From Escherichia coli (GTDB lineage Bacteria; Pseudomonadota; Gammaproteobacteria; Enterobacterales; Enterobacteriaceae), in the NCBI RefSeq assembly GCF_036507355.1, contig NZ_AP027877.1: 64,000 bases of DNA. One strand, given 5' to 3'. Below, piece by piece: positions 19,180-20,646 of this stretch. The notes beneath the pieces are model-generated. The model made no database searches, was not told the DNA's origin, and saw only the letters and a list, made by a program, of their open reading frames with translations. The position numbers and the translations under genes are program-made. The first letter of the stretch is position 1; the number at the start of each line of letters is the position of its first letter.

Positions 19180-20646
19180 ATGCTACGTATCGCTAAAGAA
19201 GCTCTGACGTTTGACGACGTTCTCCTCGTTCCTGCTCATTCTACCGTTCTGCCGAATACTGCTGACCTCAGCACCCAGCTGACGAAAACTATTCGTCTGA
19301 ATATCCCTATGCTTTCCGCAGCAATGGATACCGTAACGGAAGCGCGCCTGGCTATTGCTCTGGCTCAGGAAGGCGGTATCGGCTTTATCCACAAAAACAT
19401 GTCCATTGAACGCCAGGCAGAAGAAGTTCGCCGTGTGAAAAAACACGAATCTGGCGTGGTGACTGATCCGCAGACTGTTCTGCCAACCACGACGCTGCGC
19501 GAAGTGAAAGAACTGACCGAGCGTAACGGTTTTGCGGGCTATCCGGTCGTTACCGAAGAAAACGAACTGGTGGGTATTATCACCGGTCGTGACGTGCGTT
19601 TTGTTACCGACCTGAACCAGCCGGTTAGCGTTTACATGACGCCGAAAGAGCGTCTGGTCACCGTGCGTGAAGGTGAAGCCCGTGAAGTGGTGCTGGCAAA
19701 AATGCACGAAAAACGCGTTGAAAAAGCGCTGGTGGTTGATGACGAATTCCACCTGATCGGCATGATCACCGTGAAAGATTTCCAGAAAGCGGAACGTAAA
19801 CCGAACGCCTGTAAAGACGAGCAAGGCCGTCTGCGTGTTGGTGCTGCAGTTGGCGCAGGTGCGGGTAACGAAGAGCGTGTTGACGCGCTGGTTGCCGCTG
19901 GCGTTGACGTTCTGCTGATCGACTCCTCCCACGGTCACTCAGAAGGCGTTTTGCAGCGTATCCGTGAAACCCGTGCTAAATATCCGGATCTGCAAATCAT
20001 CGGCGGCAACGTGGCAACAGCTGCAGGTGCACGCGCTCTGGCAGAAGCTGGTTGCAGCGCGGTTAAAGTCGGTATCGGCCCTGGCTCTATCTGTACGACT
20101 CGTATCGTGACTGGCGTAGGTGTTCCGCAGATCACTGCCGTTGCTGACGCAGTTGAAGCGCTGGAAGGCACTGGCATTCCGGTTATCGCTGACGGCGGTA
20201 TCCGTTTCTCTGGCGACATCGCCAAAGCTATCGCCGCTGGCGCAAGCGCGGTAATGGTGGGTTCCATGCTGGCAGGTACTGAAGAATCTCCGGGTGAAAT
20301 TGAACTCTACCAGGGCCGTTCTTACAAATCTTACCGTGGGATGGGCTCTCTGGGCGCGATGTCCAAAGGTTCCTCTGACCGTTATTTCCAGAGCGATAAC
20401 GCTGCCGACAAACTGGTGCCGGAAGGTATCGAAGGTCGCGTAGCTTATAAAGGTCGCCTGAAAGAGATCATTCACCAGCAGATGGGCGGCCTGCGCTCCT
20501 GTATGGGTCTGACCGGCTGTGGTACTATCGACGAACTGCGTACTAAAGCGGAGTTTGTACGTATCAGCGGTGCGGGCATTCAGGAAAGCCACGTTCACGA
20601 CGTGACCATTACTAAAGAGTCCCCGAACTACCGTCTGGGCTCCTGA
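19180..20646 (+). CDS. guaB: IMP dehydrogenase
   Basis: 488 aa from ATG 19180 ([13 protein letters not shown]); CBS domains; catalytic loop [11 protein letters not shown]. Confidence 0.95.

Follow-up and report, generated by a model that had tools for sequence, protein, structure and literature searches.

Control of transcription by DnaA within a transcribed region has been described at asnC, where the complex of DnaA with the terminator box blocks elongating RNA polymerase (Schaefer & Messer 1988, 1989), and the box within guaB that is considered here likewise lies in transcribed DNA. The in vivo distribution of DnaA on the Escherichia coli chromosome is described by a 2024 ChIP-seq map (PMC11317965), the sole genome-wide map that we found, obtained with C-terminally SPA-tagged DnaA in LB at 37 C and an OD600 of 0.65 with a cut-off of 3x control. 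Of 90 putative regions at the outset, those under this cut-off were dropped and sixteen DnaA-bound regions were identified; in vivo binding is to pairs of boxes 2-3 bp apart. Most of the ChIP-validated double boxes (nrdA, purH, polA, mioC, rpoH, dnaA, nrdD, DARS1/2, datA and oriC) share a TTATCCACA half-site, and mutation or re-spacing of the second box abolishes binding. Only 13 of the 32 copies of TTATCCACA counted in the MG1655 genome are bound by DnaA (PMC11317965). A third class of site is dispersed, with about 300 consensus-type boxes (TTWTNCACA) scattered over the chromosome and proposed to titrate DnaA (PMC12371093).

DnaA-dependent repression of gua was reported by Tesfa-Selase & Drabble in 1992 (Mol Gen Genet, as cited in PMC11317965, PMC2885671 and PMC8203912), followed by a report of specific DnaA binding to the guaB box in vitro (Tesfa-Selase & Drabble 1996, Eur J Biochem, as cited in PMC11317965), the title of which puts the specific binding in the guaB gene and not in the promoter. 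Reviews and research papers cite these two studies for repression of guaB by DnaA, and the reported site within guaB is a perfect match to TTATCCACA (PMC11317965). Binding of DnaA to a sequence overlapping the guaB core promoter has also been described (Husnain & Thomas 2008). A working box would tie guanine-nucleotide synthesis directly to the replication initiator, an idea that goes back to 1992 and can still be met in reviews and 'DnaA regulon' lists. Here we describe the guaB box in a 64 kb stretch of E. coli DNA (the window, 64,000 nucleotides), and add to the 2024 ChIP-seq data an independent evolutionary argument, namely that synonymous sites within the box are not constrained.

The guaB box and its surroundings in the window

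The features of the coding region that bear on the box are as follows.

19180..20646, + strand: guaB (IMP dehydrogenase) coding sequence, 488 codons plus stop
19384..19395, + strand: codons TTT ATC CAC AAA, encoding F69 I70 H71 K72 of the IMPDH peptide GFIHKNM
19385..19393, + strand (non-template strand of guaB): DnaA box TTATCCACA, nt 206-214 of the coding sequence
19434..19442, - strand: relaxed-consensus box TTTTTCACA, 40 bp downstream of the guaB box and in opposite orientation, found in 5/81 orthologues

The gene is identified by NCBIfam TIGR01302 (IMP dehydrogenase, E=6e-201), with its ATG at 19180, and lies between the divergent xseA on one side and guaA, which follows it. Its coding strand carries a DnaA box that matches the consensus at 9/9 positions and reads 5' to 3' on the non-template strand. 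A perfect 9-mer about 205 bp into guaB had been claimed from the letters of the window, and the box does begin at nt 206 of the coding sequence. Within the reading frame it is divided as T/TT ATC CAC A/AA across F69-I70-H71-K72, and the synonymous choices that it requires are TTT (not TTC) at F69 and CAC (not CAT) at H71, the third position of the Ile70 codon corresponding to the degenerate position 5 of the box. This is the site of Tesfa-Selase & Drabble in E. coli K-12, with the same TTATCCACA about 200 bp into the gene and identical sequence; the guaB box is therefore already known, having been described in 1992/1996 and re-examined in 2024.

The 701-bp stretch around the box matches 5425/5426 complete E. 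coli genomes, of which 5005/5425 share an identical 41-mer centred on this site, and the box is intact in the three divergent E. coli strains sampled. We discarded this conservation as evidence for function, since divergence within the species is too shallow to be informative. E. coli HH97 (NZ_CP116409.1), in which the region is 89% identical to the window, has a guaB annotated as frameshifted (pseudogene), and may reflect either an assembly error or a divergent lineage.

A window scan found one perfect copy of TTATCCACA, the one in guaB. The expectation is 0.29 copies per 64 kb window, and at least one copy was present in 27 of 100 dinucleotide shuffles. Neither TTATNCACA (3 found, 2.06 expected) nor TTWTNCACA (4 found, 5.6 expected) is enriched in the 64 kb, and two of the four TTWTNCACA sites, the guaB box and TTTTTCACA, are within 58 bp of each other. 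Genome-wide, any given 9-mer is expected about 35 times (35.4) on both strands of 4.64 Mb, so the 32 perfect boxes of MG1655 are about the number expected at random. The codon usage of E. coli guaB itself (TTT 5, TTC 4; CAC 9, CAT 1; ATC 23, ATT 9) gives a probability of 0.5 for TTATNCACA given FIHK, and multiplication of these codon frequencies gives about 0.36 for the perfect box. The occurrence of the guaB box is statistically unremarkable.

The window also contains hda, whose presence alongside the box had been pointed out with the remark that it might be coincidental.

~35250..35959, + strand: hda (DnaA inactivator), NCBIfam NF005982, E = 1e-143

The distance from hda to the guaB box is 15.9 kb, and yfgI, yfgH, an IS1 element, yfgG, a small hypothetical ORF, pdeF, ppx, ppk1, purN, purM, upp and uraA lie between them, that is, 11 annotated genes on both strands together with IS1. 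A functional link between the box and hda was rejected on account of this distance, the intervening genes on both strands and the lack of any sign of linkage, and we take the proximity to be coincidental, as had been allowed.

Several further features of the window were observed. The IS1 element is complete (768 bp, 23470-24237, NCBIfam IS1 family transposase), with its insA/insB ORFs on the - strand, and its insertion point between yfgH and yfgG is flanked by a 9-bp target-site duplication, TTCCTTGTT, at 23461-23469 and 24238-24246. Only about 12 bp separate the element from the start codon of yfgH, such that yfgH is cut off from its upstream region. Strain PapRG-06-5, which shows 100% identity along the 701-bp guaB query, lacks the element and has an offset of 777 bp. 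A relaxed box, TTATACACA (24245-24253, +), abuts the IS1 end; it is native, being present also in the IS1-free strain, no more than about 15 bp from the yfgH start codon. The coding strand of ppk1 carries another relaxed box, TTATGCACA (29623-29631, -), within the gene. On the other side of guaB, positions 12818-17573 between der/yfgJ and xseA contain an island with sinH (an intimin-like inverse autotransporter) and sinI, followed by a 460-aa C-terminal remnant of a RatA-like giant adhesin (model positions 2242-2683 of 2683). PapRG-06-5 has a 6.4-kb gene at the RatA-like site, indicating a deletion of about 5 kb in the window.

Synonymous positions of the box across guaB orthologues

The box codons were compared in 80 guaB loci from Enterobacterales and Pasteurellaceae, with one genome scanned per species and protein identities of 82-100%; alignment counts (n=81) include the guaB of the window. 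The peptide GFIHKNM is invariant in 81/81 sequences, whereas every synonymous position of the box codons varies, with 63 TTT and 18 TTC, 47 ATC and 34 ATT, and 52 CAC and 29 CAT. Of the 81 sequences, 42 carry TTATNCACA and 26 carry the perfect TTATCCACA. The box is kept in 51% of the 80 orthologues and in 20 of the 24 closest, and TTT at codon 69 shows no association with CAC at codon 71 (Fisher p = 0.42).

Judged against 9-mer windows of the same phase that have an invariant peptide and degenerate third positions, the box is not exceptional, as 23% of these are conserved at least as well. The same is seen among Enterobacteriaceae-like taxa (n=31), for which the comparison windows have two constrained third positions, both two-fold degenerate: the box is kept in 74%, the median for matched windows is 73%, and half of them equal or exceed the box. 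Changes were also counted by Fitch parsimony on a neighbour-joining tree, and these counts are minima. The third position of F69 has changed at least 13 times, which puts it at the 36th percentile among the two-fold T/C sites of invariant columns, that of H71 at least 20 times (83rd percentile), and the presence or absence of the box itself flips at least 21 times. By both the column-matched and the tree controls, the synonymous positions of the box are not more conserved than matched synonymous positions elsewhere in guaB.

A simpler calculation appears to give a different answer, in that gene-wide, per-species codon frequencies predict 15.7 TTATNCACA boxes where 42 are observed (P ~2e-11 under independence). 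We rejected this excess as a sign of selection, because the column-matched and tree-based controls put the box in the ordinary range. The excess is an artefact because the sequences are phylogenetically related, because an excess of TTT is common to other invariant Phe columns (53-59/81), and because H71 is mid-range among the His columns of the alignment; the lack of association between TTT69 and CAC71, the comparable conservation of matched 9-mer windows, and the ordinary Fitch change counts at the third positions of F69 and H71 all lead to the same view. Conservation beyond what the FIHK peptide demands, by which the sequence-only reading had proposed to judge the box, is thus not seen, with 23-50% of matched controls as good or better. 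On these alignments, common descent and the peptide account for all of the retention of the box, which is most likely not under selection.

Occupancy of the box and explanations for its presence

The 2024 ChIP-seq map, which represents one condition, detected no DnaA within guaB, so that the occupancy which had been proposed as a second check is not observed there. The guaB site is absent from the 2427 best double-box matches; the authors explain its lack of occupancy by the want of a neighbouring box at 2-3 bp, and place guaB, along with several other classical targets, probably outside the DnaA regulon (PMC11317965). In the window there is likewise no partner box for the guaB site: 9-mers in the same orientation and 2 or 3 bp away on either side score 1, 1, 1 and 4 of 9, and partner boxes at ChIP-bound sites score 4-8 of 9 against the consensus (Table 1, PMC11317965). 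The nearby TTTTTCACA at 19434-19442 was considered as a cooperating partner and rejected, as it is 40 bp and not 2-3 bp away, is in the opposite orientation, and is found in so few orthologues. A separate line of evidence comes from proteomics, where perturbing the DnaA-ATP fraction or titration left regulon proteins (with guaB listed) at their wild-type levels, except for FliC, GlpD and NrdD, although GuaB is not individually singled out (PMC12371093). Single-condition ChIP-seq with tagged DnaA could miss transient or low-occupancy binding to a lone box in a transcribed gene.

The reading that we favour, with a probability of roughly 65%, is that the guaB box is a coding by-product: solitary, not appreciably occupied in vivo, not selected, and not a dedicated regulator of guaBA. 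The invariant FIHK peptide, when written in common guaB codons (TTT ATC CAC A..), spells TTATCCACA, and purified DnaA binds it in vitro, as expected of a consensus box and as reported in 1996. In growing cells the box would not be detectably occupied, it is proposed because the adjacent second box is missing, and heavy transcription of guaB possibly also lowers DnaA occupancy. At most, the box may contribute to the weak titration of DnaA by a few hundred scattered sites. This analysis supplies the sequence, strand and codon context of the box and shows that a partner box and synonymous constraint are lacking; the in vitro binding, the negative ChIP-seq and the unchanged proteome come from the literature. 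From the low occupancy we infer that there is no regulatory role. The sequence-only reading had mentioned that DnaA-dependent regulation of gua through a box in this area had been reported; the reports exist (1992/1996, as cited), but the regulatory function finds no support in either the ChIP-seq signal or synonymous constraint. The 1992 genetic effect on gua is unexplained if no box is used. The missing conservation in other genera leaves room for a lineage-specific function, as the box is kept in most close relatives and in the E. coli strains sampled.

The main alternative, which we consider unlikely, is a roadblock of the asnC type, as in the model of Tesfa-Selase & Drabble: DnaA would bind some 240 bp downstream of the guaB promoter and there block or slow elongating RNA polymerase. 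The placement is suitable, with a perfect, high-affinity 9-mer inside the transcription unit on the non-template strand, 205 bp 3' of the guaB ATG and about 250 bp 3' of the -10 hexamer, and there is precedent at asnC and possibly at datA. The cited reports of DnaA-dependent gua repression and of specific DnaA binding to the guaB box also point this way, as does retention of the box in most of the closest orthologues, of the 41-mer in most E. coli genomes, and of the box in the three divergent strains. However, there is no ChIP-seq signal within guaB, which its authors place probably outside the regulon, the site has no double box, its synonymous positions change at ordinary rates with repeated gain and loss of the box, and regulon members other than the three named above keep wild-type protein levels under DnaA perturbation. 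Such a roadblock is possibly active only in conditions outside the ChIP-seq sampling, or only in the Escherichia lineage. If it were true, abundant DnaA would lower guaBA expression and couple guanine-nucleotide supply to replication initiation.

A narrower form of this proposal, to which we assign a distinctly low probability, is a condition-specific DnaA checkpoint restricted to Escherichia, Citrobacter and Enterobacter, in which single-box binding would throttle elongation through guaBA. It would operate during slow growth, replication stress or peak DnaA-ATP, outside the LB sampling of the ChIP-seq, and would tie the supply of GTP and ppGpp precursors to replication initiation. It retains some plausibility because the ChIP map covers one condition and because the box is present in most close relatives. 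In a variant of this idea, drawn by analogy with the 'rDnaA boxes' proposed in the his leader, DnaA might bind the UUAUCCACA copy of the box in guaB mRNA.

DnaA could also act at the guaB promoter, for which the relevant features are as follows.

19127..19135, - strand: DnaA-like box TTATACAGA, 7/9 to TTATCCACA and one mismatch to TTATNCACA, overlapping the -10 hexamer
19131..19136, + strand: -10 hexamer TATAAT of the guaB promoter, TGTATAAT being conserved in 74/81 upstream regions

The transcription start would be near 19143, and hence the intragenic box at about +242. TTATACAGA probably corresponds to the core-promoter DnaA site of Husnain & Thomas (2008), and promoter occlusion through this imperfect box, with the intragenic box either irrelevant or recruiting DnaA by looping, could be an alternative; we regard it as very unlikely. 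In its favour, the 7/9 box does overlap the -10 hexamer, and five orthologues have the full consensus TTATACACA at the position where E. coli has TTATACAGA. However, the 1996 title locates specific binding in the guaB gene, ChIP-seq shows no DnaA-bound region at the locus, the promoter is about 250 bp from the intragenic box, and TTATACAGA has no evident double-box partner. It is present in 47/81 upstream regions, but the -10 hexamer and the PurR operator confound this figure, since its conservation is inseparable from theirs.

Positional turnover of boxes near guaB was also considered and rejected: among 80 loci there are 8 relaxed boxes in 20 kb of upstream sequence, mostly those overlapping the -10, with no convincing enrichment. 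The core promoter block GCAATCGGTTACGCTCTGTATAATGCC[G/A]CGGCAATATTT, containing the PurR operator, the -10 and a GC-rich discriminator (window 19100-19179), is nearly invariant across Enterobacterales. Just downstream of it, the guaB 5' UTR varies by indel among the 80 orthologue upstream regions; many genera have here a TTTTATCTGTTCTCATTCACC-like sequence, missing from E. coli, and in some species of Serratia and Yersinia the segment includes TTTTTCACA.

Pure titration, with the guaB box as one dispersed site buffering free DnaA and no effect on guaBA, can be given hardly any weight as a separate explanation, because although high-affinity binding of DnaA in vitro is to be expected of a consensus box, here one among some 300, there is no measurable ChIP-seq occupancy and no selection to keep the box, and the box enrichment that is relevant to titration is around oriC, with guaB not among the regulon genes listed there (PMC12371093); it is largely a weak form of the coding by-product explanation.

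Comparison of the guaB box with described DnaA systems

Compared with the view of the guaB box taken from the 1992/1996 studies, the site is unchanged and the assessment is different, as ChIP-seq and the conservation analysis both argue against a role in vivo. We suggest that guaB be dropped from lists of the DnaA regulon, or marked in them as doubtful. More generally, a transcription-factor motif can be perfect and still be a by-product of coding when it lies within a conserved peptide.

The asnC box is at the end of its gene and beside oriC and mioC, in a region rich in DnaA boxes, whereas the guaB box is solitary, within the coding sequence of an essential pathway, and without ChIP-seq occupancy. 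It differs from the ChIP-validated double boxes in being intragenic, where these are upstream of promoters, and in lacking the second box that they have 2-3 bp away. Like the dispersed titration boxes, the guaB box is solitary and outside the known DnaA-regulating loci, although it is set apart from these by its perfect R1/R4-type sequence, where they need match only the relaxed consensus, and by its history as a claimed regulatory site.
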